NCBI GenBank assembly: GCA_965215225.1
Contig: OZ244039.1
Location: 111,771 to 175,770, forward strand
DNA: 64,000 nucleotides
Reading direction: 5' to 3'
From: Gammaproteobacteria bacterium
GTDB taxonomy: Bacteria; Pseudomonadota; Gammaproteobacteria; CBDBNL01; JAAOII01
The position numbers and the translations under genes were made by a program. The notes below the pieces were generated by a model that saw only the letters and a program-made list of their open reading frames with translations, was not told the DNA's origin and did no database searches. Of the stretch, positions 11,895-30,507 are shown piece by piece. Position 1 is the stretch's first letter. Each line of letters begins with the position of its first letter.

Positions 11895-13204
11895 AATGGA
11901 AGCGGTAAAGAAGCAGCGCGTCTAAACAAATCTGATTTAATTGAGGTTCGCCAATCCCATCCAAAAACTACCAGCTATGCTATTGGATTGAAGCTGAGGA
12001 ACTAAGTCAAAGCCAGCCATATATAAGAAGGAAAACAGCTTGGCTAGATGGGTCTGGTTGGGTTCAGCTGTCCTAGTCGCTTCGGTTGAAGCTGAGGAAC
12101 TAAGCCAAAGCAAGCTACCTATATATAAGAAGGAAAACAGCTTGGCTAGATGGGTCTAGTTGGGTTCAGCTGTCCTAGCCGCTTCGGTTGAAGCTGTTGA
12201 ATATAAGAGACTAGTCAAAGCCAGCTACCTATATATAAGAAGGAAAGCAACTTGGCTAGATGGTCTGGTTGGGGTTGATCTGTCCTAGCTGAGAACCTAG
12301 TCAAAGCCAGCCACCTATATATAGGAAGGAAAGCAGCTTGACTAGATGATTCTAGTTGGGATTCATCTGTCCTAGCTGAGGAACCTAGTCAAAACCAGCT
12401 ACCTATATATAGGAAGAAAAGCAGCTTGACTAGATGATTCTAGTTGGGATTCATCTGTCCTAGCTGAGAACCTAGTCAAAGCCAGCTACCTATTATATAA
12501 GAAGGAAAGCAGCTTGGCTAGATGGGTCTGGTGGGGATTCTTCTGTCCTAGCCGTTTCGGTTGAAGCTGTTGAAGCTGAGGGACTAGTCAAAGTCAGCCA
12601 CCTATTACATAAGAAGAAAAGCAGCTTGACTAGATGGTCTGGTTGGGGTTGATCTGTCCTAGCTGAGAGCCTAGTCAAAGCCAGCTACCTATATATAGGA
12701 AGAAAAGCAGCTTGACTAGATGGTCTGGTTGGGGTTGATCTGTCCTAGCTGAGAACCTAGTCAAAGCCAGCTACCTATATATAGGAAGAAAAGCAGCTTG
12801 ACTAGATGGTCTGGTTGGGGTTGATCTGTCCTAGCTGAGAACCTAGTCAAAGCCAGCTACCTATTATATAAGAAGGAAAGCAGCTTGGCTAGATGGGTCT
12901 GGTAGGGATTCTTCTGTCCTAGCCGTTTCGGTTGAAGCTGTTGAAGCTGAGGGACTAGTCAAAGTCAGCCACCTATTACATAAGAAGAAAAGCAGCTTGG
13001 CTAGCTGGGTCTGGTTGAGTTCCTCTGTCCTAGCCGCTTTGGTTGAAGTTAGAGGGCCTAAGTCAAAGCAAGTTGTCGATTTAAGGTGAAAGGCTAATCA
13101 AAATCAGTTTGAAGAAGAAGGCAGACTGTCTAAGCGAGTCTGGTCTAGTGTGGGCTTGGCAGGCGTCCCCTCCAAAGACCACCAGCTACGCCAGTTGTCA
13201 ATGG
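11895..13204. repeat. Tandem array of ~12 copies of an 86-118 bp repeat derived from the 3' cassette-junction element of the giant lipoprotein genes. Each unit carries an 8-bp stem ctagtcaa/ttgactag around a TATATATA core and a GCTTC-GGTT-GAAGC hairpin.
   Basis: Direct reading: units such as gcagcttgactagatggtctggttggggttgatctgtcctagctgagaacctagtcaaagccagctacctatatataggaagaaaa recur head-to-tail. Longer variants insert ccgtttcggttgaagctgttgaagct. No unique spacers between units. Confidence 0.85.
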
Positions 13205-15613
13205 CTAATGGTGTGCAGCGAATGGCCGGATATTGACTTGAAGTGCCGAAATCCCAGATAAGATTGTCAGTCGAATTTGTTCATCTGCCTCAATGCTCCC
13301 GCTATGATCCCTATCACACCAGACCGCCAATGGCACGTTATCCCCATCGCTAAATATATTTGTCTCCTCGTCCCACCTATCATAAATATCTGTATAGCCA
13401 GTTGGGCTGCGGAGATCACTAGTGGTCTTGGCTTCACCAATGTTGCCAATACTGCCACTACTAAGAACATCACTGTCCCAATAGGAAGCAACTCCATCTC
13501 CGTCTGAAGCCGTCCCCGTCATAGCAGTATTACTGCCTGAAACTACATAAGAATAAGCAACCCGACCAGCATTAGCATCAACGCCAAGGAAGCCCACCAG
13601 ACCGCCTACAGAAGCAAGAAACAACCCCCCCATTCCGTTCACCTCAGCCACCACAACCGAAGAAGAATGAATCCGAGCACCTGGACCCCGCCCCAACAGA
13701 CCACCTACACTATTACCATTATCCCCTCTCACTTCACCTGCCACAACCGAAGAAGAATATATCTCAACCGATTCACTATCCCCTACCAGACCACCTACAT
13801 TACCCGCAACACCACTCCCTCTCACCTCACCCACCACGACCGAAGAAGAATATATCTCAACCGATATGCCCCCAGTCACTGGGCCCCACCCCAACAGACC
13901 TCCTACTTGATTAGCCCCGCTCACCTCACCCGCCACAACCGAAGAAGAATGAATCCGAGCCAATTCACCATACCCCACCAGACCGCCTACAACATTATCA
14001 GTCCCGTTCACCTTACCCGCCACAACCGAAGAAGAAACAATCCGAGCACTCATACCTCTCCCCATCAGGCCGCCTACATTAATACCACTCCCGCTCACCT
14101 CAGCCACCACAACCGAAGAAGAATTAATCTGAGCCGACGAACCAACCCCCATCAAACCGCCTACACTACCAACCCCTCTCACCTCAGCCACCTCAACCGA
14201 AGAAGAAACAATCCGAGCCGAGCCACCATTCCCTACCAGACTGCCTACAACTCGCCTTCCTATCACCGCTTCGGCGCGGAGAGTCAAATTGCGAATCTCT
14301 GAACCCGTAGCTATATAGCCAAACAAACCCACACAATCCTCAGCTGGACGACTAATGCTTAGATCACTGATCGTCCAGCCATTGCCTTCAAAAGTCCCAT
14401 CAAAAGCAGCTCCTTGACATAAAGCCATACTACTATCTGTATCATTCCCTAATGGCTGCCAGCCTTTGCCCTCTCTATAAGCGGCAAGACTTATATTCCC
14501 AACCAACTCATAGCCAGAACAAGAAGTGATCGCAGCGCCATCACCACAGCCAGTGCTATCAAGCGACCCATCCGCCGATAGCTTTCGCCCATTACCTTCT
14601 AGAGCATGCCTCACTGCATCCAATTGCGCCGCCGTCTCTATCTCTATCAACCCATCCCCATCTCTATCTACGTCCGCCCCATCCATAGAACCATCATTAT
14701 CATCATCTGTATCTTCACCTGCATCTCGGCAACCATCCATATCACTATCGGTCGAAGGATTACTCATCCAACCTGTCTCACCAGCAGAACAGTCGTCCAA
14801 ACTATCACCTACCTCATCATTATCACAATCCGCTAACAACCGACAACTCATCCCACCTGAATTAGTCAGCTGCTCCTTCGTATCAGTATCATCCAACCCA
14901 TCATTATCATCATCTGTGTCCTCAGTCTCATCACGGCAACCATCCCCGTCATTATCGCTAGAAGCATTGCTCTGCCAGTTGATCTCGTGACCAACAGCAT
15001 CCGGATCATCACATCGGTCTGCCTCATTATTAACATCATCGCCATCTAAGTCATCATCCACACTGTCTGCTCGTCTATCCCCATCCGTATCCAGCCCTGA
15101 CCCAATGCCGCCATCGTCGTGGTCGGCCTCATTCTCTGGCCAAACAAAATTGATTGCTACCCTCTGCTGTCTGCCATCATCAAGAGTCCCTATAATCGCA
15201 AAGGTCCAGTTGGATTGGTCGCCTAACCCAGTGAGGTTATAACTGTCATCAGCAAATTCGTTTATGTTAATATTCTTATTTACAGACTCGGTTCTATTGG
15301 TCGCCGTAATCCTCAAAGAAACCATCTCGCCAAAATCCGATTGGTTGCCTATTTGAAAACCATCGGGTATGGGAGCAAAAGTGAGATTTACCTCAAAAGG
15401 CCGGAGAGAACTAGGAGGACCATCACCTGGACCGCCTCCCCCATCTGAACCATTTTCCGAATCATCGCTTCCCCCACCAGCACAAGCCGTAAGAACTAGA
15501 AAGCTGAACCCAACTAAAAAGAAGAGAAGCCGCCCGCCTCGCAAAATCGGAAGGAAAGCAAGCACGAAAGAGGAAAGAAGACCCCGCACCAAACTAAACA
15601 AGCGGGGGGGCAT
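13205..15613 (-). CDS. Giant surface lipoprotein, single cassette (802 aa): lipobox LVLTAC, Ig-like FEVNLTFAPI domain, thrombospondin type-3 repeats, ~10 GLUG-motif repeats (VGGLVG), C-terminal AVWCD...WDFG...YPA domain.
   Basis: ORF track. TSP3 consensus D.D.DG..D..D.C..........D.DGDG..D visible repeatedly. GLUG period of ~19-22 aa. Paralogous to 16365-21803 and 62612-64000. The plus-strand Ser/Pro-rich ORFs inside are antisense artefacts. Confidence 0.7.
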   Translation of the reverse strand: MPPRLFSLVRGLLSSFVLAFLPILRGGRLLFFLVGFSFLVLTACAGGGSDDSENGSDGGGGPGDGPPSSLRPFEVNLTFAPIPDGFQIGNQSDFGEMVSLRITATNRTESVNKNININEFADDSYNLTGLGDQSNWTFAIIGTLDDGRQQRVAINFVWPENEADHDDGGIGSGLDTDGDRRADSVDDDLDGDDVNNEADRCDDPDAVGHEINWQSNASSDNDGDGCRDETEDTDDDNDGLDDTDTKEQLTNSGGMSCRLLADCDNDEVGDSLDDCSAGETGWMSNPSTDSDMDGCRDAGEDTDDDNDGSMDGADVDRDGDGLIEIETAAQLDAVRHALEGNGRKLSADGSLDSTGCGDGAAITSCSGYELVGNISLAAYREGKGWQPLGNDTDSSMALCQGAAFDGTFEGNGWTISDLSISRPAEDCVGLFGYIATGSEIRNLTLRAEAVIGRRVVGSLVGNGGSARIVSSSVEVAEVRGVGSVGGLMGVGSSAQINSSSVVVAEVSGSGINVGGLMGRGMSARIVSSSVVAGKVNGTDNVVGGLVGYGELARIHSSSVVAGEVSGANQVGGLLGWGPVTGGISVEIYSSSVVVGEVRGSGVAGNVGGLVGDSESVEIYSSSVVAGEVRGDNGNSVGGLLGRGPGARIHSSSVVVAEVNGMGGLFLASVGGLVGFLGVDANAGRVAYSYVVSGSNTAMTGTASDGDGVASYWDSDVLSSGSIGNIGEAKTTSDLRSPTGYTDIYDRWDEETNIFSDGDNVPLAVWCDRDHSGSIEADEQIRLTILSGISALQVNIRPFAAHH

Positions 15614-15799
15614 TATTGCGGCTATGTAACAAGGCGGACATAGACAAGGTAAGATAAGAGAAATAAAAGCGAGGCATTGCCGAGGCTAGATAAAAGAAAT
15701 CAGAAAGCAAGGCATTCACAATAGTGAAGAAGCGAGACCTGGTCACGCTAGATAAGAAAATTTTTGTTATCATGGCTAGTAATTGGTTAATGAATTCAT

Positions 15800-15960
15800 A
15801 GGTGGCATTATACCTCTTTTATAGATCTTTTATCTTTTTTTTAACTTTTTTTATCTCTTTTTTACATATCTTTTATCTTTTTTTTGTATCTTTTTTATCT
15901 CTTTTTTATATCTCTTTTAGGTCTCTTTTATATCTTTTTTCTGGTTATTTTTGTCTCAAC
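15800..15960. repeat. Degenerate ~13-bp repeats (tatctcttttttat)n in the 5' region of the 13205-15613 gene.
   Basis: Direct reading of ...ttttatctcttttttacatatcttttatcttttttttgtatcttttttatctcttttttatatctcttttaggtctcttttatatctttttt... Confidence 0.6.
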
Positions 15961-16035
15961 TAGCATTCAATTAATAGAAGATGAATGGTTAGTTCTGCCA
16001 GCTCAATTAACATCAGGACAATGCTCCTTGCCTGT

Positions 16036-16446
16036 TGGATTGAAGCTGAGGAACTAAGTCAAAGCCAGCTACCTAATATATAAGAAGGAAAGCAGCTTGA
16101 CTAGATGGGTCTGGTCGGGGTGTGCCACCAACCAAAGACCACCAGCTATGCCGTTTCGATTGAAGCTGAGAAACTAAGTCAAAGCCAGCTACCTAATATA
16201 TAAGAAGGAAAGCAGCTTGACTAGGTGGGTCTGACTGGGTTCAGCTGTTCTAGCCGTTTCGGTTGAAGCTGGGGGGCTAAGCTAAAGCAAGTTGGTAGTT
16301 TAGGAAAGCAGCTTGGCTAGATGGGTCTGGTTGAGTTCCTCTGTCCTAGCGGCTTCGGTTAAAGCTAGGGAAGCAACGCGTCTAAACGAGGCTGGTTTAG
16401 CCGGGGTTTGGCTGGCGTCCCCTCCAAAGACCACCAGCTACGCCAG
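16036..16446. repeat. Second array (3-4 units) of the junction-derived 100-115 bp repeat, overlapping the 3' coding end of the 16365-21803 gene.
   Basis: Same unit family as 11895-13204 (ttgaagctgaggaactaagtcaaagccagctacctaatatataagaaggaaagcagcttgactagatgggtctgg...). The conserved junction core cctccaaagaccaccagctacgccag lies at 16415-16446. Confidence 0.8.
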
Positions 16447-19400
16447 TCATCAGGGGCTAGCGGGGTGCAGAGAAGAGCGGGATATTGACTTGAGGTGCCG
16501 AAATCCCAGATGCGATTATCAGGGGTTCGTTCATCTGCCTCTATGCTCCCGCTATTATCCCTATCACACCAGACCGCCAAAGGCACGTCTTCCCCATCGT
16601 TAAATATATTTGTATGATTGCCCCAGTTGGCATAAATATCTGTATAGTCAGTTGGACTGCGGAGATCACTAGTGGTCTTCGGGTCACCAATGTCGCCACT
16701 AAGGACATTACTAGTATCACTGTCCCAATAAGAATCAACATCAGTAATCCCGCTTCCAACTCCAGCCAACATATTGGTATTCCTGCCTGAGACTACATAA
16801 GAATAAGCAACCTTGCCAGAGTAAAAGGCTCCCGCCAGACCGGCTATACTACCTAGTAAACCACCACTCCCGCTCACCTCACCCACCACAACCGAAGAAG
16901 AATGAATCCGAGCCGAGCCACCATTCCCTACCAGACCGCCTACACTACTACTCCCGTTCACCTCACCTGCCACAACCGAAGAAGAATGAATCCCAGCCCG
17001 AACACCATTCCCTACCAGACCGCCTACATACAAACCAGTTCCGCTGACCTCAGCCACCACAACCGAAGAAGAAAAAATCCGAGCCGAGTGACCCCATCCT
17101 ACCAGACCACCTAGAACCCCCAACCCGCTCACCTCTCTTGCCACAACCGATGAAGAAAAAATATGAACGCCATCCCCCCACCCCACCAGACCGCCTACAC
17201 GAAGATTACCTTTCACCCCACCCACCACAACCGAAGAAGAAACAATCCGAGCCAAGCCACCATGCCCCACCAGACCGCCTATACTAGTATTCCCACTCAC
17301 CTCACCCACCTCAGCTGAAGAAGAATTAATCCGAGCCGAGCTGCCATCCCCCACCAGACCGCCTACACGAAGATTACCTTTCACCCCACCCACCACAACC
17401 GAAGAAGAAACAATCCGAACATCTGTCCCATACCCCACCAGACCGCCTACTCTATCACCACCTACTACTGCCTCGGCATGAAGAGTCAGATTGCGAATCT
17501 CTGAATTCGCAGCTATATGACCAAACAAACCCACGCAATCCTCACCTGAACGATTAATGCTTAGATCACTAATCATCCAGCCATTGCCTTCAAAAGTCCC
17601 ATCAAAAGCAGCTCCTTGACATCCATCTGTAACATTATCTGTATCATGACCCAAGGGTTGCCAGCCTTTGCCTCCATCACCATCTGCATAGGCTGCAAGA
17701 CTTATATCCGCAACCAGCTCATAACCATTACAGGTCCTAATGCTGTCGCCATCACCACAGCCAATGGTGTCGGTCGTCGCATTCTCTGATAGCTGGCGCC
17801 AGCTACCATGCAAAGCATACCTCACTGCATCTAATTCCGCGGCCCTAGCTATCTCTATCAAACCATCGCCATCATCATCTATATCTATATTGTCGTCATA
17901 ACCATCGCCATCGCAATTCCTATCTAATGCACATCCAGCTGCCTCATCACCATCTCGGACCTCATCATTATCATCGTCTGTATCCTCATCTGCATCACGG
18001 CAACCATCGCCATCATTATCAGTAGAACCATTGCTCGTCCAACCCGTCTCACCAGCAGAACACTGGTCTGAATTATCATCTACCCTATCATTATCGCAAT
18101 CAGTCTTTATTACACAATTTGCCGCCACTTCATCTATGTCTCTGACAGTATCCCCATCGCAATCTGCTAACAGCGAACAACTCACCCCATCCAAATTATT
18201 CTGCTGCTCCCTCACATCAGTATCATCCAATCCATCATTATCGTCATCTGTATCCTCACCCCCATCACGGCAACCATCCCCATCATTATCGGACGATGAA
18301 TTGCTCGTCCAACTTGTCTCACCAACAGAACATTGATCTGAACTATCAGTTACCAAATCATTATCATCATCTTCATCCTCACCCTCATCACGGCAACCAT
18401 CCCTATCATGATCGGTAGAACTATTGCTTAGCCAATCGGGCTCGCCAATAGAACATTGGTCTGAATTATCATCCACCTCATCACTATCACAATCAGTTTC
18501 TATTACACAATTTGATGCCATCTCATCTATATCTCTGACAGTATCCCCATCGCAATCCGCTAACAACCAACATGTCACATTATTTGAATTAGTTAGCCGC
18601 TCTCTCGAATCATTATCCCCTAACCCATCATTATCACAATCCTCATGCAAACGACACTCCCTTCCATCAACCATTCCTGTATCCAGCAAATCTAAAATAT
18701 TATCATCATCATCATCCTCATCACAAGCATCCCCTTCAGTATCACCATCAATATTATATTGTCGAGGATTTACAACAAGCCGGCAATTATCCCTAACATC
18801 CGGAACCCCATCATTATCATCGTCATCATCCACACTATCCGCTCGCCCATCCCTATCTGTATTTAGACCTGGCCGAATACCGCCGCTTGCGTGATCTTCA
18901 CGATTCTCTTGCCAGATAAAATTTATTCTCATATTTTGCTGCCTCCCATCACTAAGAGCCCCTATAATCCGAAAAGTCCAATCGGTTTGATCATCTAGCC
19001 CGATAAAATCATAATAGCTGTCATCAATAAATTCGGCTATGTCAATATCCTCTTCTACTACCAACCCGCCTTCATTAGTTGCTTTGATGTTCAAAGAAAC
19101 CGAATCACCAAAATCCGATTGGTTAGCTATGCGAAAACCATCGCTTATGGGAGTAAAAGTGAGATCCACCTCAAAGAAAGGAAGCAGCTCATCTAAACGG
19201 GTCCGGTTTAGTCGAGGTTTACCAATCTCATCCAAAAACCACGAGCTACGCCAGTCGGCAGGGGTTAGCTGAGTGCAGCGAATGGCGGGATATTGACTTG
19301 AATTACCGAAATCCCAAATAAGATTGTCCTCGGTTTGTTCATCTGTCTCAATGCTCCCGCTATTATCCTCATCACACCAGACCGCCAATGGGACGTCTTC

Positions 19401-21803
19401 CCTATTGCCAAATATATTTGTAGCATTGTCCCAATCGGCATAAATCCCTTCATAGCCAGTCGGCATCCGAAGTGCATCGCTGGTCTTGGCTTCCCCAGTG
19501 CTTCCACTATTAACACCATTAACATCACTGTCCCAATAAGAATCAACATCAGTAACCCCGCTTCCAGTCCCAACCAGCATAGCAGCATCTGAGACCACAT
19601 AAGAATAAGCAAGCTTGCCAAAATCAAAACGCCCCGCCAGGCTGCCTATAAAATTACGTCGCCCACTCACCTCAGCCACTACAACCGAAGAAGAATGAAT
19701 TTGAGCGAATGGTCCATCCCCTACCAGACCGCCTACAAAACTAAAAAAACTGTTCACCCCGCTCACCTCAGCCACCACGACCGAAGAAGAGTGAATATGA
19801 GCACCTTCACCCAACCCCACCAGACCGCCGACAGTAGAGCGCCCGCGCACTTCACCCGCCACAACCGAAGAAGAATCAATCCGAGCCGATAGACCCCAAC
19901 CCACTAGACCGCCTATTAGGCTATTCCCGTTCATCTCACCAACCACAACCGAAGAAGAATGAATTTGAGCCGAGTCACCCAAACCCACCAAACCACCTAT
20001 CCAATCATTAGTCCCGCTCACCTCGCCAGCTACGACCGAAGAAGAAACAATCCGAGCAAATTCACCAGACCCCATCAGACCGCCTATACTCTGCACACCC
20101 ATCACCTCACCCACCTCAACCGAAGAAGAATGAATCCGAGCGAATTCACCATACCCCACCAGACCGCCTACAGCATTTCTACCTATCACTGTCTCGGCAC
20201 GAATATTCAAATTGCGAATCTCTGAATTCGCAGCCACATGACCAAACAAACCCACACAATCCTCGCCTGAACGACTAATACTTAAATTGGTAACCGCAAA
20301 ACCATTGCCTTCAAAAATTCCGTCGAAAGCGGCTCCTTCACATTCACCTTCAAAATTTAGTGGTCCTTCCCCCAAGGGCTGCCAGCCTTTGCCGTCCCTA
20401 TAAGCAGCAAGACTTATATTCCCAACCAGCTCATAGCCATCACAGAACCTAATGCCGTTGCCACCACCACAACCAGTGGTGTTGAGTTCCGCATCCGCTG
20501 ATAACCTACGCCCATCGCCATTCAGAGCATACCTCACTGAATTCAATTCCGCCGCCGCGGCTATCTCTATCAAACCATCGCCATCTCTATCTATGTCCTC
20601 ATCATCCATAACCCTATCATTATCATCGTCATCATCCTCACCTGCATCACGGCAACCATCGCCATCATTGTCGGTAGAAGGATTGCTCGTCCAACCTGTC
20701 TCACCAGCAGAACACTGGTCGAAATAATCATCTACCTCATCATTATCACAATCCTCATACAAGCGACACTCCCTCCCATCAACCATTCCGGTATCCATCA
20801 AATCTGGCAATAGATCATTATCACAATCCTCATATAAGCGACACTCCCTCCCATCAACCATTCCGGCATCCATCAAATCTGGCAATAGATCATTGTCATC
20901 ATCCATATCCTCAGTCTCATCACGGCAACCATCCATATCATTATCGCTAGAAGAATTGCTCGTCCAACCTGTCTCACCAGCTTCGCACAGGTCCAAATTA
21001 TCATTTACCTCATCATTATCACAATCGCTGTCTAATTCACATCCAGCCTCCTCATCCAGATCTTCTACCTTATCATTATCATCATCTGTATCCTCAGTCT
21101 CATCACGACAACCATCCCCATCATTATCGGTCGATGAATTGCTCGTCCAACCTGTCTCGCCAGTTTCACACAGGTCTGAACTATCATTTACCCTATCATT
21201 ATCATCATCCTCATCCACACTATTCGCTCGCCCATCCCCATCCGTATTGTTTCCCGCCCGAATGCCACCGCTCTCGTGATCTTCCTCATTCTCTTGCCAC
21301 ACAAAGCCTATCTCCACCTCCTGCTGCCTGCCATCACTAAGAATCCCTATAATCGCAAGAGTCCAGTTGGATTGCTCATCTAGCCCAGTAAAGTTATAGC
21401 TGCCATCAACAAATTCGGCTATGTTGATATTTAGCTCTTCTACCACCGACCCATTCTCACTGGTTGCCTTGATGCTCAAAGAAACCAAATCACCAAATGC
21501 CGATTGGTTGCCTATTTCAAACCCGCCACTTATAGGAGCAAAGGTGAGATTTACTTCAAAAGGTCGGAGAGAACTAGGAGGGACTTCAGTTGGACTGCCT
21601 CCCGAACCCCCACCAGCACAAGCAGTAAGAGTTAGAAAGCCAACCCCAACCAAAAAGAAAAGAAACCGCTTGCCTCGCAAAAGCGGAGGGAAGGCAAGCA
21701 CAAAGGAGAAAAGAAGTCCCCTCACTAAACTAGACACGCGAAGAGCGGACACAAAGGAGTGGCATAACGGAGGCACAAGAAAGACATAGACGAGGGAAAA
21801 CAT
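16365..21803 (-). CDS. Giant surface lipoprotein formed by in-frame fusion of two complete cassettes (1812 aa). Each half has the FEVNLTF Ig-like domain, TSP3 repeats, GLUG repeats and a WDFG/YPA C-domain. The halves are joined through a translated junction element (...YPAIRCTQLTPADWRSSWFLDEIGKPRLNRTRLDELLPFFEVDLTF...).
   Basis: ORF track. Internal repetition of the whole domain order. Nucleotides 19190-19330 match the intergenic junction or tail element found after the other cassettes. Confidence 0.7.
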   Translation of the reverse strand: MFSLVYVFLVPPLCHSFVSALRVSSLVRGLLFSFVLAFPPLLRGKRFLFFLVGVGFLTLTACAGGGSGGSPTEVPPSSLRPFEVNLTFAPISGGFEIGNQSAFGDLVSLSIKATSENGSVVEELNINIAEFVDGSYNFTGLDEQSNWTLAIIGILSDGRQQEVEIGFVWQENEEDHESGGIRAGNNTDGDGRANSVDEDDDNDRVNDSSDLCETGETGWTSNSSTDNDGDGCRDETEDTDDDNDKVEDLDEEAGCELDSDCDNDEVNDNLDLCEAGETGWTSNSSSDNDMDGCRDETEDMDDDNDLLPDLMDAGMVDGRECRLYEDCDNDLLPDLMDTGMVDGRECRLYEDCDNDEVDDYFDQCSAGETGWTSNPSTDNDGDGCRDAGEDDDDDNDRVMDDEDIDRDGDGLIEIAAAAELNSVRYALNGDGRRLSADAELNTTGCGGGNGIRFCDGYELVGNISLAAYRDGKGWQPLGEGPLNFEGECEGAAFDGIFEGNGFAVTNLSISRSGEDCVGLFGHVAANSEIRNLNIRAETVIGRNAVGGLVGYGEFARIHSSSVEVGEVMGVQSIGGLMGSGEFARIVSSSVVAGEVSGTNDWIGGLVGLGDSAQIHSSSVVVGEMNGNSLIGGLVGWGLSARIDSSSVVAGEVRGRSTVGGLVGLGEGAHIHSSSVVVAEVSGVNSFFSFVGGLVGDGPFAQIHSSSVVVAEVSGRRNFIGSLAGRFDFGKLAYSYVVSDAAMLVGTGSGVTDVDSYWDSDVNGVNSGSTGEAKTSDALRMPTGYEGIYADWDNATNIFGNREDVPLAVWCDEDNSGSIETDEQTEDNLIWDFGNSSQYPAIRCTQLTPADWRSSWFLDEIGKPRLNRTRLDELLPFFEVDLTFTPISDGFRIANQSDFGDSVSLNIKATNEGGLVVEEDIDIAEFIDDSYYDFIGLDDQTDWTFRIIGALSDGRQQNMRINFIWQENREDHASGGIRPGLNTDRDGRADSVDDDDDNDGVPDVRDNCRLVVNPRQYNIDGDTEGDACDEDDDDDNILDLLDTGMVDGRECRLHEDCDNDGLGDNDSRERLTNSNNVTCWLLADCDGDTVRDIDEMASNCVIETDCDSDEVDDNSDQCSIGEPDWLSNSSTDHDRDGCRDEGEDEDDDNDLVTDSSDQCSVGETSWTSNSSSDNDGDGCRDGGEDTDDDNDGLDDTDVREQQNNLDGVSCSLLADCDGDTVRDIDEVAANCVIKTDCDNDRVDDNSDQCSAGETGWTSNGSTDNDGDGCRDADEDTDDDNDEVRDGDEAAGCALDRNCDGDGYDDNIDIDDDGDGLIEIARAAELDAVRYALHGSWRQLSENATTDTIGCGDGDSIRTCNGYELVADISLAAYADGDGGKGWQPLGHDTDNVTDGCQGAAFDGTFEGNGWMISDLSINRSGEDCVGLFGHIAANSEIRNLTLHAEAVVGGDRVGGLVGYGTDVRIVSSSVVVGGVKGNLRVGGLVGDGSSARINSSSAEVGEVSGNTSIGGLVGHGGLARIVSSSVVVGGVKGNLRVGGLVGWGDGVHIFSSSVVAREVSGLGVLGGLVGWGHSARIFSSSVVVAEVSGTGLYVGGLVGNGVRAGIHSSSVVAGEVNGSSSVGGLVGNGGSARIHSSSVVVGEVSGSGGLLGSIAGLAGAFYSGKVAYSYVVSGRNTNMLAGVGSGITDVDSYWDSDTSNVLSGDIGDPKTTSDLRSPTDYTDIYANWGNHTNIFNDGEDVPLAVWCDRDNSGSIEADERTPDNRIWDFGTSSQYPALLCTPLAPDDWRSWWSLEGTPAKPRLNQPRLDALLP

Positions 21804-21965
21804 CCCTTCACCAAACTAGACAAGCGGGAAGCAGGACACAAAGGAGTGGCATAACGGAGGCACAAGAAAGACATAGACGAGGAAAAACATCCCTTCACCA
21901 AACTAGACAAGCGGGAAGCAGGACACAAAGGAGTGGCATAACGGAGGCACAAGAAAGACATAGGG
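21736..21965. repeat. Three tandem 87-bp copies of the 5' end (start-codon region) of the 16365-21803 gene.
   Basis: Unit period of exactly 87 bp (acacaaaggagtggcataacggaggcacaagaaagacatagacgag...). Upstream copies carry ATG-initiated short ORFs that end at a TAG created by a 1-nt difference from the gene-proximal copy. Confidence 0.8.
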
Positions 21966-22225
21966 GAGGTGAGATAAGAGAATAGAAGCGGGACCCAATA
22001 TCCACAATATTGAAGAAGCGGAGCTTCACTTCCTTGTCTTCACCGAAAAACAAAAATTGTCTTGTCATGGTTAATGATTGAAACTAATAAGAACATTGTT
22101 CAGCTGCTTATCAGCTAGCTAAAAGCAGAAATGGTTTCATAGTCCTATTATATCTTTTCTTCCAACTAAAAAAAGGAATACTGTAATCATATTAGCAGTC
22201 TTAGTTTGTTAGTTTTTGTCAGTTT

Positions 22226-22645
22226 AAGGAAGGAAGCCGCTCATCTAAACGGAATGGTTTAATTTGTCAAGCGTCCCAGCCAAAGCAAGTTGTCAGCTTA
22301 AGATGAGAGGCTAATCAAAATCAGCCCAAGAGGGAAGTAGATTAGCTAAATGGGTCTGGCTGGAGTTCCTCTAGCCTAGCCGAGAATCTAAGCCAAAGCC
22401 AGTTGTCAGTTTAAGGAAGGAAGCAACTCGTCTAAGCGGGTTCGGTTTAGTTGGGGTTTGGCAGGCGTCCCCTCCAAAGACCACCAGCTACTTCGGTTGA
22501 AGCTGAGGAACTAAGTCAAAGCCAGCTATCTATATATAAGAAGGAAAGCAGATTAGCTAAATGGATCTGGTTGGGGTTCATCTATCCTAGCCCCTTCGGT
22601 TGAAGCTGAGGAACTAAGTCAAGGCAAGTTGGTGGTTTAGGAAAA
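22226..22645. repeat. Third array (~4 units) of the junction-derived repeat family, upstream of the 16365-21803 gene.
   Basis: Units contain aaggaagcaactcgtctaagcgggttcggtttagttggggtttggcaggcgtcccctccaaagaccaccagctac and ttcggttgaagctgaggaactaagtcaaagccagc. Confidence 0.8.
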
Positions 22646-22647
22646 TA

Positions 22648-22840
22648 GGCGGATTCACATTTAAAGTGCAACATCTGTTGCTAAATTATAATTGATTTCG
22701 CTGAGTTGTTAGAACACTTCAGCGGGTGTTTCGAATCCGAGGCACTTTCGTGGTCGGTTGTTCAATCGGGTCATGATTTTAGTTATTATTTGGTTAGATA
22801 GATTTCGGAAGGACATTCTTTTCTCTGAAAGATAATGCTT
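22648..22840 (-). mobile_element. IS30-family right-end remnant (IRR ggcggattcacatttaaagtgcaacatc plus ~50 C-terminal transposase codons).
   Basis: Colinear nucleotide similarity to the 3' ~190 bp of the intact IS copy, in reverse orientation. Confidence 0.6.
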
Positions 22841-22912
22841 TTTACACATTTTAGATCGGCTAGTTATCTTGGAGTCAGGTTGCCCTTAGGATGTAAATTT
22901 ATGTTGTAGTCA

Positions 22913-23659
22913 TCAGACATTATTGTGTCTTTGATGAATGGTGTTTATTGTTTTCTTGTTTCTATTAATCGATATGACTTGCCTCCCATGTTTTTTTGCT
23001 GCTGTCCCAGTAGTTTCGTTCCCGCCAGAAAGAATCAACACAGTATTACCTACATTACTATGAGCTAAGATGATTCGCTCCAAAATATTAAAGGGTCTTT
23101 GAATAGAGTTCTTATTCCCATTATTCTTTTCTTTGCTATTACTTTTTAGTATCGGCATACTATCCCACCAGACATCAGTCGGAGTTTTGCCACGCTTAGC
23201 CTTTTCATCTCCTACTAACATAGGCGCCATATATGGTATGCGATCTATTTCCTCGTAGTTATAGCTATAATTTTTGTTATCCTTTGTGTACCACAAGATA
23301 TAGTGATGTTTTGTCGGCCATCTCGATCTGCTTCGAGCCCTTCCCTCATAGGCTAGGATGATTTCGTTTATAAAATTACTCCTACCAAATAATTTATCCA
23401 TCTCAATTTTGATATAGTGAACCTCTCTATAGTCTGCTTGTAAAAAGAAACTTCCGTTATCACTTAATAATGGATATGCTAACTCCACTCTATCCATCAA
23501 GAATGAAATGTGGTTTCTGGATTTGTCACCTTGCCCTCGCCTATTCTTAAAGAGCCGCTCAATGTAAATAAGATCTATGCTACCCTTTTTTATGGTAGGT
23601 AAATTCATATCTTCTTTCCAAACTAAAAAACAATTGCTGAAATCATATCGGCATGGCAA
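22913..23659 (-). CDS. Degenerate beta-class (CcrM-like) DNA methyltransferase homologue with both catalytic motifs ablated. A likely inactive pseudo-enzyme or early-stage pseudogene, although the ORF is intact.
   Basis: Colinear with CcrM: SIDLIYIERLF (for SVDLIFADPPY), LSDNGSFFLQADY (for LKPNGSLWVIGSY), HHYILWYTKDNKNYSYNYEEI (for [19 protein letters not shown]), and ILSGGNETTGTAAKKHGRQVISI (for [25 protein letters not shown]). DPPY is replaced by ERLF and D-FxGxG by SGGNE. Confidence 0.5.
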   Translation of the reverse strand: MPCRYDFSNCFLVWKEDMNLPTIKKGSIDLIYIERLFKNRRGQGDKSRNHISFLMDRVELAYPLLSDNGSFFLQADYREVHYIKIEMDKLFGRSNFINEIILAYEGRARSRSRWPTKHHYILWYTKDNKNYSYNYEEIDRIPYMAPMLVGDEKAKRGKTPTDVWWDSMPILKSNSKEKNNGNKNSIQRPFNILERIILAHSNVGNTVLILSGGNETTGTAAKKHGRQVISINRNKKTINTIHQRHNNV

Positions 23660-23873: not shown

Positions 23874-24992
23874 ATGAAAAAAATAGCGTTCTACCTTCCT
23901 TTATTACTGATGGCCAGTCTGCCAGTTCATTCATTGGAGCTGGTTACCAGTATCAAACCGCTTCAGCTAATGGCATCGGAGCTTATCCTACCCCAAGACC
24001 GGGTAGCTTATCTCATCCCACCTAATGCATCGCCTCACACCTATGGCTTGAAACCCTCTGCCATAAGGCAAGCAAGACAAGCCGACCTTGTTCTCTGGGT
24101 TGGCAGTGGGCTGGAAAGCAAATGGGGGAAGTTGTTCACTAGCCTCGACTCATCTATTGAGCTAGCTCAGGCACTAGGCTTACAAGAGGAGAGAGAAGAA
24201 CATGGTGAGGACCATGATAAACACCATGGTGAAAAGCACGATGAAGAGCATAGCGAAGAGCATGATGAAGAGCATAGCGAAGAGCATGATGAAGAGCATA
24301 GCGAAGAGCATGATGAAGAACATAGTGAAAAGCACGATGAAGACCATGGTGAAAAACATGGTGAAAAACATGGTGAAGAGCATGGTGAAAAACATGGTGA
24401 AGAGCATGGTGAAAAGCATGATGAAGACCATCATGAAGACCATGATGAGGAACATGGTGAAGAGCATGCTCATCACGACCATTCTCATTCAATTGACCTT
24501 CATATCTGGTTGTCGCCTCCATTGATGAGGCAGACAGCAGCCGTTATCACCGACCGCTTAATCCAACTCAATCCTTCTCAAGCAGAATCCTACCAACAAA
24601 AATTGGCTGCTTTTGAAAGAGACCTAGCCACCGCCATTAATGCCATAAACAACGACCTACTAGCTGTAAGGGATAAGAAGTTCTATACCATGCATGATGC
24701 CTATAACTACTTCACTTCCTATTTTCATCTCAGCAACACTGGTTATCTGACCCTCTCGCCTGAGATTCCCCTGTCAGCTTCCCATCTACAGAGGGTTCGC
24801 TCCGACCTAAAAAACAAAGACATCGTCTGCGTATTTAGCGAGCCGCAACTAGATGAGGCAGCGGTTCTCAAACTCATTGAAGGCACTCAGGTTCGTTATG
24901 GCATTCTAGACCCCCTAGCAGGCAATGCGAACGACTATTTCAGCTTTCTCCACACGCTAGCAGATTCATTCAAACAATGCCTTGCTTCCTAA
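23874..24992 (+). CDS. znuA: Zinc ABC transporter periplasmic substrate-binding protein ZnuA-like, with a long His/Glu/Asp-rich loop.
   Basis: Signal peptide. Cluster-9 SBP pattern. Loop HGEDHDKHHGEKHDEEHSEEHDEEH... encoded by 24-bp nucleotide repeats (agcgaagagcatgatgaagagcat x4). The ORFs 24154-24525 are artefacts of this repeat. Confidence 0.75.
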   Translation: MKKIAFYLPLLLMASLPVHSLELVTSIKPLQLMASELILPQDRVAYLIPPNASPHTYGLKPSAIRQARQADLVLWVGSGLESKWGKLFTSLDSSIELAQALGLQEEREEHGEDHDKHHGEKHDEEHSEEHDEEHSEEHDEEHSEEHDEEHSEKHDEDHGEKHGEKHGEEHGEKHGEEHGEKHDEDHHEDHDEEHGEEHAHHDHSHSIDLHIWLSPPLMRQTAAVITDRLIQLNPSQAESYQQKLAAFERDLATAINAINNDLLAVRDKKFYTMHDAYNYFTSYFHLSNTGYLTLSPEIPLSASHLQRVRSDLKNKDIVCVFSEPQLDEAAVLKLIEGTQVRYGILDPLAGNANDYFSFLHTLADSFKQCLAS

Positions 24993-25934: not shown

Positions 25935-28641
25935 ACACTTAATTCTGGTGGATGGCTCGAGCCATATGTTTCGCGCCTACTATGCCCTTCAACAGCAGGG
26001 TTTCTCTAGCCCCGACGGCAAACCCACTGGTGTTCTTTATGGGGTGCTCAATATGATAAAGGCATTAGGCAAACAATATCCCAAAAGCACTATCATCATA
26101 GTTTTTGATGGCAAGGGCAAAGGAGTCCGCAGCCAATGGTATCCCAAATATAAAGCACAGCGCCCATCTATGCCTGAGGATATGAGAGAACAGCTGCCCC
26201 CTTTGTTTGATGCCATTCGGGCTTTGGGAATTCCCTTAGTCCAACAAGGCGATTGGGAAGCCGATGACCTCATAGGCGTGCTGGTTAAACAAGCACCTTC
26301 GCTATATAAGAAAACCTACATAGCGACTCGCGACAAGGACTTGGCTCAGCTAATCTCCACTAGGGTTTCAATCCTTGCCGATGAAAAGACAAACACTCTA
26401 TGGGGGCCAGCTGAGGTAGAGGAAAAATTTGGGGTGCCACCCAAGCTGATTAACGACTATCTAGCACTTCTAGGTGACACGGTTGACAACATTATCGGAG
26501 TAGAAAAGGTGGGGCCAAAGACAGCCGCTCAGTTGCTCAAAAAATACGGCTCGCTAGAAGAGCTACTTGCCAATCTCAATGAGGTTCCAGGCAAGGTGGG
26601 CGAAAATCTCATGGCAGCTAAGGAACGGCTACCGCTAAACAAGAGGCTCACCACTCTTATCTCTTCCATCTCGCCGCTACCAGACCTTGCTTCATTAAAG
26701 ACAAGACCGCCAGATAATGACAGGCTGCGCGCGCTCTATTTAGAATATGGCTTGCGCAGTTTTCTTAAAGAGATGCCAAGCCATGACAGCCCAACTGAAC
26801 AAGAGTACCATCTCATAACCGAAAAAGAGCAATGGCAAGAGCTAATCAAGCAGCTGCGCAAGAACAAGTCTTTTGTCTTCAATCTGCATAGTGAGAAAAA
26901 GGAAGACCTCAATGCCGCTCCAGTTGGGTTCTCATTTGCTATGTCTGCAGCCAAAGCCTATTATGTGCCGTGCGGTCATTCTTACTTAGATGCCCCTCCC
27001 CAATTAACTATTGAAGAGATCTTGGCTGAGCTAAAACCACTCTTCGTTTCTCACACTATTATTAGTCATGGACTCAAATATAGCTTCCATCTGCTTGCCA
27101 ACCAACTCCAACTGGAGAAGCGAGCAGAAAAACAATCATTGAATCAGCTGCCGAGCCAATGGGAAGATGTTCGTCTGATGTCCTATACTATCAATTCCAC
27201 TGCCAGTAACAATCATTCACTATCCGATCTCAGCCAAACCTATCTCGCTACCATTAAGCAAGACGACCAAGAACTGCTTGGCAAAGGCAAAAAGCAAATA
27301 GGCTTCGCTGACCTAGATCTAGCCAAAGCAAAGGACTATGCTGGCGAAGAAAGTCTGCTCAGCTTTCAGCTATTTGACCGATTGAGCGAAGAGATGAAAA
27401 AGGAAAAAGATTTGATGGCTGTCTATCAGAAAATAGAAAAACCCCTCATGCCAGTGCTGATGCATATGGAACGCACCGGCGCATTGTTGGACTCTAAGCT
27501 ATTACAGCAACAAAGTCGCCAACTGGAAAAAGCTATGAAGCAGATCGCCGAGCAGATCTTCTCTCATAGTAAAACGGAATTCAACATCAACTCCCCAGCT
27601 CAGCTTGGCAAGGTGCTTTATGAGGAGATGGGCTTTACTTCTGGCCGCAAAACAAAGGGTGGTAAGCACTCCACTGCCGAAAGCATTTTGCAAGAACTAG
27701 CTATTGAGCACGAATTTCCTCGTCTGATATTAGACTACCGCAGTGTCAGCAAACTAAAGAATACCTATACCGACCCTCTCCCTCAATTAGTGAATCCGAA
27801 AACCGGCCGCGTCCATACTTCTTTTGATCAAGCGGGGGCTGCCACCGGACGACTAGCTTCCCTCCACCCTAATCTACAAAATATTCCCATTAGAACAGCT
27901 GAGGGTAGGCGGATTCGCCAAGCATTCATCGCTCCAGCCGGTCGGCTACTAGCATCTGCTGATTACTCCCAAATTGAACTGCGCATCATGGCACATCTAT
28001 CCAAGGACAAGACCCTACTTGACGCCTTTCAGCGCAAACAAGACATCCATAGAGTTACCGCAGCTGAGGTGCTTGGCAAAGAACCGAGCCAAGTAACCGA
28101 TGAGGAGCGGCGACAAGCCAAGGCAATCAACTTTGGCCTAATCTATGGTATGTCCGCCTTCGGCCTAGCAAGACAACTGAGAATAGAACAATCAGCCGCC
28201 CAAGAATTCATCAAGATATATTTCAATCGCTATCCGGGAGTTCAAAAGTATATTACCCAGACGCGCAGCCTAGCCCACAAAAAAGGCTGGGCTGAAACGC
28301 TCAGTGGGCGGCGAGTCTATACCCCTGATATTAACAGCACTAACTTTGTTGCCCGCTCGGCAGCCGAGCGAGCTGCTATCAATGCCCCAGTGCAAGGGAC
28401 TGCCGCTGACATCATCAAATTAGCCATGCTGAAAGTATCCGCTGCCCTGGATCATCAACGCGCCAGTTTAATTTTGCAGGTGCATGATGAATTGCTACTG
28501 GAAGTAGATGAAGACTATATCGACCAATGCGAGCAATTGGTGCGCGACTCTATGACTCAGGTCGCGCCACTAAAAGAGAAACTTCAGGTGGATCTGGAGG
28601 TGGATTTCGGCTATGGCGCTAATTGGGATGAGGCTCACTGA
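25927..28641 (+). CDS. polA: DNA polymerase I (5'-3' exonuclease, 3'-5' exonuclease-like and polymerase domains).
   Basis: 904 aa. Motif A DYSQIELRIMAHLS, motif B RRQAKAINFGLIYGMSAFGL, motif C LQVHDELLLEV. N-terminal FEN domain. Confidence 0.95.
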   Translation: MNEHLILVDGSSHMFRAYYALQQQGFSSPDGKPTGVLYGVLNMIKALGKQYPKSTIIIVFDGKGKGVRSQWYPKYKAQRPSMPEDMREQLPPLFDAIRALGIPLVQQGDWEADDLIGVLVKQAPSLYKKTYIATRDKDLAQLISTRVSILADEKTNTLWGPAEVEEKFGVPPKLINDYLALLGDTVDNIIGVEKVGPKTAAQLLKKYGSLEELLANLNEVPGKVGENLMAAKERLPLNKRLTTLISSISPLPDLASLKTRPPDNDRLRALYLEYGLRSFLKEMPSHDSPTEQEYHLITEKEQWQELIKQLRKNKSFVFNLHSEKKEDLNAAPVGFSFAMSAAKAYYVPCGHSYLDAPPQLTIEEILAELKPLFVSHTIISHGLKYSFHLLANQLQLEKRAEKQSLNQLPSQWEDVRLMSYTINSTASNNHSLSDLSQTYLATIKQDDQELLGKGKKQIGFADLDLAKAKDYAGEESLLSFQLFDRLSEEMKKEKDLMAVYQKIEKPLMPVLMHMERTGALLDSKLLQQQSRQLEKAMKQIAEQIFSHSKTEFNINSPAQLGKVLYEEMGFTSGRKTKGGKHSTAESILQELAIEHEFPRLILDYRSVSKLKNTYTDPLPQLVNPKTGRVHTSFDQAGAATGRLASLHPNLQNIPIRTAEGRRIRQAFIAPAGRLLASADYSQIELRIMAHLSKDKTLLDAFQRKQDIHRVTAAEVLGKEPSQVTDEERRQAKAINFGLIYGMSAFGLARQLRIEQSAAQEFIKIYFNRYPGVQKYITQTRSLAHKKGWAETLSGRRVYTPDINSTNFVARSAAERAAINAPVQGTAADIIKLAMLKVSAALDHQRASLILQVHDELLLEVDEDYIDQCEQLVRDSMTQVAPLKEKLQVDLEVDFGYGANWDEAH

Positions 28642-29445
28642 TTAGATCTTATGACTAGGCAGTCAGTTTCCATGACTCAAGTTGCGCCACTAAAAGAGAA
28701 ACTTCAGGCGGATCTGGGGGTGGGTTTGGAGGTGGATTTAGGGGCGGATTTGGAGGTGGGTTTGGGGGTGGATTTAGGGGCGGGTCTGGGGGCGGATTTC
28801 GGCTATGGTGCTAATTGGGACGAGGCTCATTGACTAGGTCTTATGACTAAGCGGTCAATTCTCGTGATTCAGGTTGCGCCACTAAAAGAGAAGCCTCAGG
28901 TGGATCTGGAGGTAGATTTAGGGGCGGATTTCGGCTATGGCGCTAATTGGGATGAGGCTCATTGATTAGGTCTTATGACTAGGCAGTCAGTTTCCATGAC
29001 TCAAGTTGCGCCACTAAAAGAGAAACTTCAGGTGGGTTTGGGGGTGAGTCTGGGGGTGAGTCTGGGGGTGGGTTTGGAGGTGGATTTGAGAGCAGATTTC
29101 GGCTATGGCGCTAATTGGGACGAGGCTCATTGATTAGGTCTTATGACTAAGCGGTCAATTCTCGTGATTCAGGTTGCGCCACTAAAAGAGAAACTTCAGG
29201 TGGGTCTGGAGGTGGATTTAGGAGCGGATTTGGAGGTGGATTTCGGCTATGGCGCTAATTGGGACGAGGCTCATTGATTAGGTCTTATGACTAAGCGGTC
29301 AATTCTCGTGATTCAGGTTGCGCCACTAAAAGAGAAACTTCAGGTGGGTTTGGGGGTGAGTCTGGGGGTGGGTTTGGAGGTGGATTTGAGAGCAGATTTC
29401 GGCTATGGCGCTAATTGGGATGAGGCTCATTGACTAGGCCTGATG
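28642..29445 (+). repeat. Six tandem ~130-190 bp copies of the polA-3'-end / mnmA-5'-start junction. Each contains a decoy mnmA-like ATG fused to a polA tail and an internal variable 12-bp (ggtggatttrgg) microsatellite.
   Basis: Each unit reads ...ttaggtcttatgactaggcagtcagtttccatgactcaagttgcgccactaaaagagaaacttcaggtgg(at/gt)ctgg... ggctatggcgctaattgggatgaggctcattga. ORF 28651-28833 is one such unit. Confidence 0.85.
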
Positions 29446-30507
29446 GCTAGGCAGTCAGTTTTCGTTGCCCTTTCGGGTGGAGTAGATTCCGCCTTGACTG
29501 CCTCACTGCTCCAAGAACAAGGCTATGAGGTAGTCGCGGTGTTTATGCGTAACTGGATGGATGACGATGGTCGTCCTGAATGCACTAGCCTAGCAGATTG
29601 GTTGTCCGCGAGGCGAGTTGGCGACCACCTGGGCATAGAAGTCCAACAGGTTAATTTCAGCCAGCTCTACAAGGAGAAGGTCTTTCATCCATTCTTGCGC
29701 GGGCTGGTAAATGGTATCACACCCAATCCAGATGTGCTTTGTAATCACTTTATAAAATTTCAGGCACTTAGACACTATGTTCGCCATCAAGGAGGGCAAC
29801 TACTAGCCACTGGCCATTATGCCCGCCTGGTTTCAACGCCACCAGAGCTGCATCGTGCCTATGATAGCACCAAGTGCCAGACCTATTTCCTTTTTGCAGT
29901 GAACAATTTTGCCAACTGCCTTATGCCCCTTGGCGATCTTAGTAAGTCTCAGGTGCGGGCTATGGCAAAGAAACGGCGCCTGCCTAACTATGCCCGTAAA
30001 GACAGCACTGGGCTATGCTTCATTGGCGAAAGAAACTTTTCTCACTTCATTAGTCGTTATCTTAAAGATGACCCAGGTGAGATAGTGGATAGCCACGGAA
30101 AGGTCCGCGGCCAGCATAGGGGGCTATTTCACTATACCATAGGTCAGCGGCGCGGCCTTGGCATTGGCGGAAAGGCAGATAGCGAACATAGTCCTTGGTA
30201 TGTGATTGACAAAGACAAAAAGCACAACCGCTTAATAGTAGGGCAACAAACCAATGCTCTTTATGCAAATGAGATCCGCATCACCAATCTCCACTGGATT
30301 AATGAGCCACCCAAATTGCCACTCAACTGCCAAGTGCAGATCCGCTATCGCAGCCAATCTTCCCCCTGTATAGTGAGCACTGCCAAAGAAGGCTCCTGCC
30401 GTTTGCAGTTTGCTCAGCCGCAAAAGGCTGCCACTCCAGGCCAAGCAGCCGTTTTCTATCAAGGAGAAAGGTGTCTAGGCGGAGGGTTTATTGCTTCCAA
30501 CATCTAA
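29443..30507 (+). CDS. mnmA: tRNA-specific 2-thiouridylase MnmA.
   Basis: PP-loop VALSGGVDSALTA, catalytic Cys region GLCFIGE. 354 aa. Confidence 0.9.
   Translation: MARQSVFVALSGGVDSALTASLLQEQGYEVVAVFMRNWMDDDGRPECTSLADWLSARRVGDHLGIEVQQVNFSQLYKEKVFHPFLRGLVNGITPNPDVLCNHFIKFQALRHYVRHQGGQLLATGHYARLVSTPPELHRAYDSTKCQTYFLFAVNNFANCLMPLGDLSKSQVRAMAKKRRLPNYARKDSTGLCFIGERNFSHFISRYLKDDPGEIVDSHGKVRGQHRGLFHYTIGQRRGLGIGGKADSEHSPWYVIDKDKKHNRLIVGQQTNALYANEIRITNLHWINEPPKLPLNCQVQIRYRSQSSPCIVSTAKEGSCRLQFAQPQKAATPGQAAVFYQGERCLGGGFIASNI

Follow-up and report, generated by a model that had tools for sequence, protein, structure and literature searches.

An 87-bp tandem array in the probable leader of a giant lipoprotein gene of an uncultured gammaproteobacterium copies a stop/start junction

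The stretch of DNA analyzed here (the window) comprises 64,000 nucleotides of contig OZ244039.1 (positions 111,771 to 175,770; assembly GCA_965215225.1) and belongs to a genome of at least 2.3 Mb. Its PolA is at most 46-48% identical to that of named Gammaproteobacteria (Coxiella, Legionellaceae, Pseudomonadales), and the host is therefore an uncultured, deep-branching gammaproteobacterium. On the minus strand of the window lies a giant, repeat-rich lipoprotein open reading frame (ORF) which, at its longest, encodes an internally duplicated surface protein of the TSP3/GLUG type with 1812 aa. The protein as a whole had no match in Pfam, and its homologs carry PF02412 (TSP_3) and PF07581 (Glug). 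The 5' end of this ORF runs into a tandem array of an 87-bp unit, which is the subject of this report; the features discussed are listed in Table 1.

Table 1. Features of the lipoprotein locus and of related repeats (window coordinates unless a contig is named)
Feature	Position	Strand	Remark
Whole array	21704-21963	-	Three head-to-tail copies
Distal copy	21877-21963	-	87 bp
Middle copy	21790-21876	-	87 bp; 1 mismatch with the distal copy
Proximal copy	21704-21789	-	86 nt; initial 43 nt identical to the other two copies
Giant repeat-rich lipoprotein ORF	16365-21803	-	1812 aa, ATG; longest ORF
ATG 21803	21801-21803	-	Opens the 1812-aa ORF; repeat-specific
GTG 21725	21723-21725	-	Candidate native start; GTG AGG GGA = M R G L L F...
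TTG 21680	21678-21680	-	Candidate native start; M RGKR FLFFLVGVGFLTLTAC, canonical 21-aa lipoprotein signal peptide
Lipobox L-T-A-C	21618-21629	-	Cys codon 21618-21620
24-aa ORF MFFLVYVFLVPPLCHSFVSCFPLV*	21816-21890	-	Sole ATG-initiated, stop-terminated decoy
78-aa ORF	21725-21961	-	Open across all three copies
TTG-initiated ORF in distal copy	21903-22007	-
Upstream ORF, 57 aa (MTRQFLFF...)	21895-22068	-	Enters the distal copy; TGA 21895-21897
Nine-codon mini-ORF MKPFLLLAS*	22111-22140	-	Starts 6 nt past the -10 box; leaderless-like arrangement
TATAAT -10 box, putative leader promoter	22147-22152	-	Exact TATAAT-N4-10-ATG recurs in most paralog leader types
C7 tract, single-copy leader of the neighbouring paralog (13205-15613)	15604-15610	-	Site corresponds to CCC in the 87-bp unit
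Start/promoter repeats of contig L003	2864-2925, 7063-7339, 12535-12749 (L003)
REP-like tandem arrays	11988-13034, 16040-16340; L001 1570-2670, 5495-7323; L013 2850-3170

Tandem Repeats Finder reported a period of 87 with 2.9 copies and 95% matches between 21717 and 21963. A 43-nt core (CTATGTCTTTCTTGTGCCTCCGTTATGCCACTCCTTTGTGTCC, minus strand) occurred exactly three times at intervals of 87 nt (21747-89, 21834-76 and 21921-63), against an expectation of zero in shuffled sequences. With at least two head-to-tail copies of high identity and a unit longer than 10 nt, the array has the repeat structure of a minisatellite. The first-pass annotation had described it as a triplication of the gene start in which the proximal copy differed by a 1-nt change of length. 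The array is real and its distal and middle copies are 99% identical, with a single-base difference; however, it is not a plain triplication, since alignment of the copies revealed 11 substitutions as well as a 1-nt gap in the last 43-44 nt of the proximal copy. The second half of this copy and the DNA downstream of it resemble the leader of the neighbouring paralog, with an identity of about 85% as judged by eye. The proximal copy is probably the original segment.

Elsewhere in the window, similarity to the unit was limited to one diverged single copy in the leader of that paralog, with an alignment score of 35 compared with 16.8 ± 2.6 for shuffled sequences (none of 500 shuffles reached it). 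Being confined to the array and this diverged copy in the window search, the unit is not a dispersed repeat of the REP (repetitive extragenic palindromic), miniature inverted-repeat transposable element or Beggiatoaceae-like type. No inverted repeats of note were present inside the unit, and no plasmid similarity was found. A fourth, degenerate copy that had been considered downstream, over the signal peptide, was rejected (alignment score 14, below the shuffle mean of 15.9), and an older start-region duplication of about 47 nt drew only weak support, with 8 of 1000 shuffles in the target and 91 of 1000 in the paralog. The unit showed no homology to the gene's own 84-87-bp GLUG coding repeats, the equal period being a coincidence.

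An independent assembly, L013, whose PolA is 96% identical to that of the window, carries an identical array, with no difference over window positions 21500-22238; the array is therefore not an assembly artefact. Copy-number polymorphism, which the first-pass annotation had advised looking for, was not seen between the window and L013 (n = 2), a comparison that is weak as a test of polymorphism because the surrounding 1.7 kb is nearly identical too. Only these two genomes carry the locus: the metagenome scan revealed no further copy, and scans of genome and metagenome contigs by protein alignment of the N-terminal domain, by PolA and by a 24-nt unit core gave no usable relatives. Another array of the region, a 12-mer (GAAGAGCATGGT) in the coding sequence for a His-rich loop of ZnuA, has 22.8 copies in the window (24195-24468) versus 17.8 in L013 (4720-4933). 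Arrays can thus vary between the two strains, although the 87-bp array does not. The divergence between window 19482-22900 and L013 1-3450 is itself a mosaic, with 0-1 differences per 100 nt over 20500-22200 and 10-35 per 100 nt in the adjoining blocks, which suggests recombination or gene conversion among lipoprotein paralogs.

The 87-bp unit contains the end of an upstream ORF (uORF), a former poly-C site (now CCC), a TAG stop and a GTG-AGG-GGA start motif with about seven codons. Because the unit copies a stop/start junction, each mini-ORF of the array ends beside another start. The TGA of the 57-aa uORF lies 4 nt short of ATG 21890; the 24-aa ORF opened by this ATG stops at a TAG (21816-21818), from which GTG 21811 is 4 nt and ATG 21803 12 nt away; and the 78-aa ORF has a TAG (21727-21725) that overlaps the candidate main start GTG 21725 (TAGTG). 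The junction types at the ORF ends of the array are therefore TGA-N4-ATG, TAG-N4-GTG, TAG-N12-ATG and TAGTG. Comparable junctions were seen among the paralogs: in the neighbouring one the uORF ends at a TAG with a GTG 4 nt further on, and in L002 and L004_5679 the TGA of the uORF overlaps the main ATG (ATGA). Two ATG-initiated, stop-terminated decoys had been described in the two distal copies. Start-like ORFs with stops are present in the array, but only the one at ATG 21890 is ATG-initiated; in the distal copy the equivalent frame has no ATG and the local ORF begins with TTG. The second frame described as running through all three copies was confirmed as the 78-aa ORF.

The position of the array relative to the gene depends on which start codon is used. 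ATG 21803 is confined to the junction between added copies; the homologous place at the 3' end of the proximal copy reads gggACTtct, and no ATG was present at the equivalent site in the single-copy paralog leaders compared. Conservation of GTG 21725 extends to the neighbouring paralog, to L001 and to three of the four distinct long-leader sequences of L003, with a stop 0-5 nt upstream. At the position of TTG 21680 homologs have an ATG, namely P0004 (MRRLFF), P0019 (MRGILSF), P0025 (MRRFLFF) and two L004 paralogs (MRRALLFF). By inspection, RGKR-FLFFLVGVGFLT-LTAC has the n-region, h-region and lipobox of a lipoprotein precursor, and LTAC is invariant across an alignment of nine homologs. Since ATG 21803 occurs only in added copies and homologs start at the equivalents of 21680 or 21725, the array most likely lies upstream of the native start, which is probably GTG 21725 or TTG 21680, downstream of the array. 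Over the 15 codons from GTG 21725 to TTG 21680, the gene differs from the paralog at eight sites, five of them synonymous, and the L001 sequence shows a 3-nt gap that keeps the frame, a codon-position pattern that would favour coding from GTG 21725, though it is suggestive only.

The first-pass annotation had given the protein a 44-aa N-terminal extension before the lipobox. As ATG 21803 is missing from the 3' end of the proximal copy and from the paralogs, this extension is unlikely to be native and is probably a product of ORF calling in a pyrimidine-rich, stop-poor leader. The starts of the 1812-aa ORF and of many homologs in the family are probably miscalled in this way, gene callers extending into the open frames of pyrimidine-rich leaders. 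Arguments from Shine-Dalgarno sites are weak in this genome because many genes of the window lack one and leaderless mRNAs are suggested. Several genes (about eight, e.g. 6311-7564, 5640-6131, 22913-23659 and 2275-3147) have a TATAAT 6-13 nt before the start codon, and the organism apparently makes many mRNAs that are leaderless or nearly so.

The leaders of the lipoprotein family were compared using 12 distinct sequences from five contigs and three assemblies. They have a common plan: an upstream stretch rich in A/T, then an exact TATAAT (in many cases with an ATG 4-10 nt further on), a uORF, a poly-C site, the start and the signal peptide. The uORFs run for 48-88 codons from a conserved ATG (MTRQFLFF, MITKIFLS, MLNKFDFF, MINSTNFS), and the start of the 57-aa uORF is homologous to the upstream ATG of the paralog leaders (MITKIFLS, MLNKFDFF, MVLNKFKF, MINSTNFS). 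In several leaders the uORF is in the frame of the lipobox or stops at the main start. At their downstream end the leaders have a GTG, TTG or ATG, placed at the n-region of a lipoprotein signal peptide of canonical type that ends in LTAC. In the target gene the leader is about 460 nt long and pyrimidine-rich, and the TATAAT at 22147-22152 may be its promoter, in which case transcription would run through the array. In the paralog L004_1832 an ATG at the position of the nine-codon mini-ORF opens straight into a full signal peptide (MRLLLLLLSKVRRFLFF...LTAC).

The promoter scan found no consensus promoter on the minus strand from 21400 to about 22685, and therefore none in or just downstream of the array; no terminator-like site was found on the minus strand between 21400 and 23000. 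Both results speak for transcription through the array. The leader RNA folded no better than shuffled sequences (z = -1.64), and nothing relevant to the leader was matched in Rfam, whether the thresholds were gathering or relaxed. The five peptides taken from leaders or extensions gave nothing above the Pfam cut-off, even at E <= 10, and no match to ESPR (PF13018). Homologous leader DNA is apparently read in different frames by different paralogs (P0012 PLLCVLP versus the target frame), which argues against a protein-level constraint on the leader.

All four homopolymers of at least 15 nt found in 168 kb of this lineage were poly-C tracts at the homologous leader site: C15 (L001 2982-2996), C22 (L002 9964-9985), C17 (L003 7421-7437) and C23 (L003 12812-12834), tract lengths for which long-read data may be wrong by one nucleotide. 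The 87-bp unit has CCC at the same place, followed by GCTTGT.TAGTTTGGTG as in the paralogs. Poly-Pro runs occur at or in the N-termini of further family members, including P0024 of the same genome, and among the paralogs the tracts were seen both in frame and out of frame with the upstream ATG. The family, to judge from these leaders, looks phase-variable. G8 tracts are also present inside lipoprotein coding regions (L002 11477-11484 and L003 21414-21421); that of L002 coincides with a split gene call (503 aa + 295 aa), which could reflect either a phase-variation frameshift or a long-read homopolymer error. Simple sequence repeat (SSR) contingency loci have a unit of 1-8 nt or a homopolymer. 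The paralogs have such a repeat, whereas the target leader has only CCC and a unit of 87 bp. Nor would a change in repeat number alter the promoter spacing or shift the frame: all frames are preserved when units are gained or lost, because 87 = 3 x 29, and the units lie downstream of the putative -10 box. The family as a whole thus consists of giant TSP3/GLUG surface lipoproteins whose leaders have long poly-C tracts and stop/start junctions, hallmarks of contingency loci.

Tandem arrays also span other gene boundaries in this lineage. The polA-mnmA array (28587-29465) is made of about five units, each with the last ~90 nt of polA, a 10-nt spacer and the first 19-21 nt of mnmA, together with expansions of a 12-mer (GGTGGATTTGGG); the same junction is organised differently in L013 (9058-9859), and in L011 (12620-12820) the spacer is 9-10 nt. 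Upstream of a permease gene a 1.3-kb array (45025-46341) has units of 103-290 nt, each carrying a TATAAT, then 9 nt, the ATG and about 25 initial codons. One 23-mer of this array (ATGACAAAGCAAGAGGAAAGAGC), in up to nine copies, corresponds to the first 23 nt of the coding sequence, and the TGA of the mini-ORF overlaps the next ATG; L011 (18950-19110) has a single permease TATAAT-N9-ATG. In L003 a 21-nt start repeat (start codon and six codons) is present in three copies such that the AGGAG of one serves as the Shine-Dalgarno site of the next ATG, and two lipoprotein paralogs have 115-nt repeats that take in their promoter and start. In four arrays the 3' breakpoints lie only about 21-23 nt into the coding sequence. 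The stop-codon region at the 3' end of mnmA is also tandemly duplicated (30485-30718; compare L011 13740-13870), and a palindromic REP-like element (CTAGTCAAAGCCAGCTA...TATATA...TAGCTGGCTTTGACTAG) forms intergenic tandem arrays in several genomes of the lineage. L011, whose PolA is 90% identical, has none of the boundary arrays and has short spacers throughout.

The first-pass annotation had listed the polA-mnmA junction and the permease 5' end as decoy-start arrays. Both arrays are real and both duplicate start regions, and the absence of such arrays from L011 agrees with the proposal that they are lineage-specific. A selection or mechanism targeting initiation regions, as had also been proposed, was not supported: the duplication process is not specific to initiation, because the stop region of mnmA and the REP-like elements of the spacers are in tandem as well. 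Duplications that cross the edge of a gene are tolerated, as one gene remains intact, unlike those inside a gene, and this filter by itself yields arrays with the look of decoy starts. Purely through such tandem copying, intergenic spacers have grown from about 10-50 nt, as in L011, to 0.3-1.5 kb, a clean natural example of how leaders, uORFs and decoy starts can arise.

Taken together, we lean with modest confidence towards a leader duplication that copied a stop/start junction and was tolerated, the native start lying downstream. A local tandem duplication within the leader of about 460 nt would have added two young copies upstream of the older, diverged one. Each added copy would bring one self-contained stop/start junction, a link in a chain without dead ends; ATG 21803 would be a by-product of the duplication, and GTG 21725 or TTG 21680 would remain the native start. 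Ribosomes loading upstream would be relayed to the lipoprotein ORF by termination-reinitiation, and the duplication would be tolerated because they could still reach that ORF. More generally, the lineage would have a high rate of tandem duplication, the products persisting where they span a boundary and leave one gene copy intact. Such tolerance accounts for the pattern better than selection for decoy starts, since arrays of this sort also lie across other gene boundaries, one of them a 3' end, and L011 has none of them.

Several observations weigh against this explanation. The TATAAT at 22147-22152 has no recognisable -35 match, which is why the consensus promoter scan did not flag it. The codon-position evidence for GTG 21725 depends on eight substitutions, and gene conversion from a paralog, not age, could account for the bimodal divergence of the proximal copy. 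In class-I leaders, the target included, the longest ORF was equalled by 35-42 of 300 shuffles (P 0.12-0.14), so that open frames are partly expected in pyrimidine-rich DNA; in the L003 and L004_10301 leaders it exceeded the shuffles (0-4 of 300). Leaders of the L003 type have an upstream ATG with a good Shine-Dalgarno site (AGGAG, 7 nt) in frame with the lipobox; this held for three of the four distinct long L003 leaders, the fourth, with C23, being off by one. Translation of long N-terminal extensions may thus be real in this family, and ATG 21803 would gain in plausibility. The array would then be coding: translation would start at ATG 21803 in the middle copy and yield an extended signal peptide with 64 residues before the lipobox, and the upstream copies would be true decoys. 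ATG 21803 does open the longest ORF, and a purine-rich GGTGAAGGG stands directly before it in an otherwise pyrimidine-rich leader. In addition, the lipobox frame of several family members is open from an ATG far upstream that has a good Shine-Dalgarno site, 50-85 residues before the Cys, and the in-frame extension of P0005 (LFHCFASSFMLSLVRLLL) resembles the target frame (LCHSFVSALRVSSLVRGLL). We nevertheless consider a coding array unlikely, as neither the end of the proximal copy itself nor the single-copy paralog has this ATG, homologs have an ATG at the position of TTG 21680, paralogs read the homologous leader DNA in differing frames, and neither ESPR nor any other Pfam family was matched. 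Lipoprotein signal peptides, moreover, normally have about 16-30 residues.

It is also conceivable that the array is an adaptive regulator, its 87-bp units changing the number of coupled mini-ORFs or the distance from promoter to start and so replacing the poly-C switch of the paralogs. The surroundings are suggestive: the family has the hallmarks of contingency loci (leader poly-C of up to 23 nt, surface lipoproteins), the two young copies, at 99% identity, form a good substrate for slippage or recombination, and the ZnuA 12-mer array at the same locus differs between strains (22.8 versus 17.8 copies). However, copy number and sequence of the 87-bp array are the same in the window and L013, where the surrounding 1.7 kb is nearly identical too, copy changes would leave the frame unshifted (87 = 3 x 29), and the two genomes are the only ones with the locus, the metagenome scan having given no match. 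A regulatory function of this kind is thus quite unlikely. Equally doubtful as a whole is a broader proposal that joins these threads, in which duplication of promoters and starts would be recurrent and possibly selected, leaderless genes would gain leaders, Shine-Dalgarno-like sites and coupled mini-ORF chains, the lipoprotein leader would be a phase-variable poly-C (poly-proline) uORF switch coupled to the main start, and the 87-bp array a copy-number rheostat on this switch. The remaining candidates, an assembly artefact, a structured cis-regulatory RNA or an iteron-like protein-binding array, are very improbable. The same array was found in an independent assembly; neither Rfam nor the fold (z = -1.64) points to a structured RNA; and an iteron-like array, which the regular spacing of identical units recalls without anything else specific to it, is at odds with the lack of meaningful inverted repeats, dispersed units and plasmid matches.

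Two features of the surroundings were recorded in addition. Compared with L011 (7342-7948), the two lipoprotein genes and an N6/N4 DNA methylase gene (13205-23659) form an insertion between ccmE and znuA, and in L004 a methylase likewise adjoins a lipoprotein paralog. Repeated fragments of about 177 nt occur in the window (3982-4158 and 35105-35281), in L013 (3184-3360) and in L014 (1-125), those of L013 and L014 directly upstream of lipoprotein promoters; judged by eye only, they resemble the 3' end and terminal repeat of an IS30-like transposase gene.

Translational coupling by stop and start codons that adjoin or overlap (ATGA, TAATG) is established, and the stops at the present locus and its paralogs likewise lie 0-12 nt from the next start (TAGTG at 21725; TGA-N4-ATG at 21890; ATGA in L002 and L004_5679). 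The difference is that in the target gene, as read from sequence, the junction is tandemly copied into a chain of mini-ORFs. Homopolymeric phase variation is exemplified by the poly-G tract of Neisseria pilC. In Gardnerella, nanH3 has a poly-C tract that varies in this manner near the signal-peptide region (bioRxiv 10.1101/2020.09.16.300947). The paralog leaders, with C7-C23 just upstream of the signal peptide in on- and off-frame states, are similar; in contrast, the target gene is reduced to CCC, and the paralog tracts lie in the uORF or extension before the signal peptide and not after it.

The opa genes of Neisseria carry CTCTT coding repeats in the leader-peptide region (PMC3960869). Like them, the present family is a multi-copy family of surface proteins with a pyrimidine-rich, slippage-prone 5' repeat at or before the signal peptide, and the length of the repeat sets the frame of the mature protein, which the poly-C tracts of the paralogs do on paper. 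In contrast to opa, the target unit is 87 bp long, a multiple of three, and its three copies toggle no frame and showed no length polymorphism between the two genomes; the host is an uncultured deep-branching gammaproteobacterium, and the lipoproteins have 650-2500 aa. For Neisseria gonorrhoeae, a catalogue describes variable-number tandem repeats that measure tens to hundreds of bases and lie within genes or upstream of them (PMC5320596). Relative to the repeats described there, the present array similarly has long head-to-tail units in the 5' region of a surface-protein gene, and differs in that its unit is a self-copy of the gene's own leader/start junction, with the same copy number in two genomes. 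In marine Beggiatoaceae, TAACTGA direct repeats occupy intergenic regions (PMC4679880). These, too, are gammaproteobacterial direct repeats of lineage-specific abundance between promoters and starts, but there one heptamer recurs at many loci, whereas in the target lineage each locus has duplicated its own unit. Among these systems the array fails the tests of an SSR switch, because a short repeat is lacking, the unit length is divisible by three and the two genomes showed no polymorphism; a minisatellite-type duplication, placed in the leader of one member of a contingency-like gene family, does fit.

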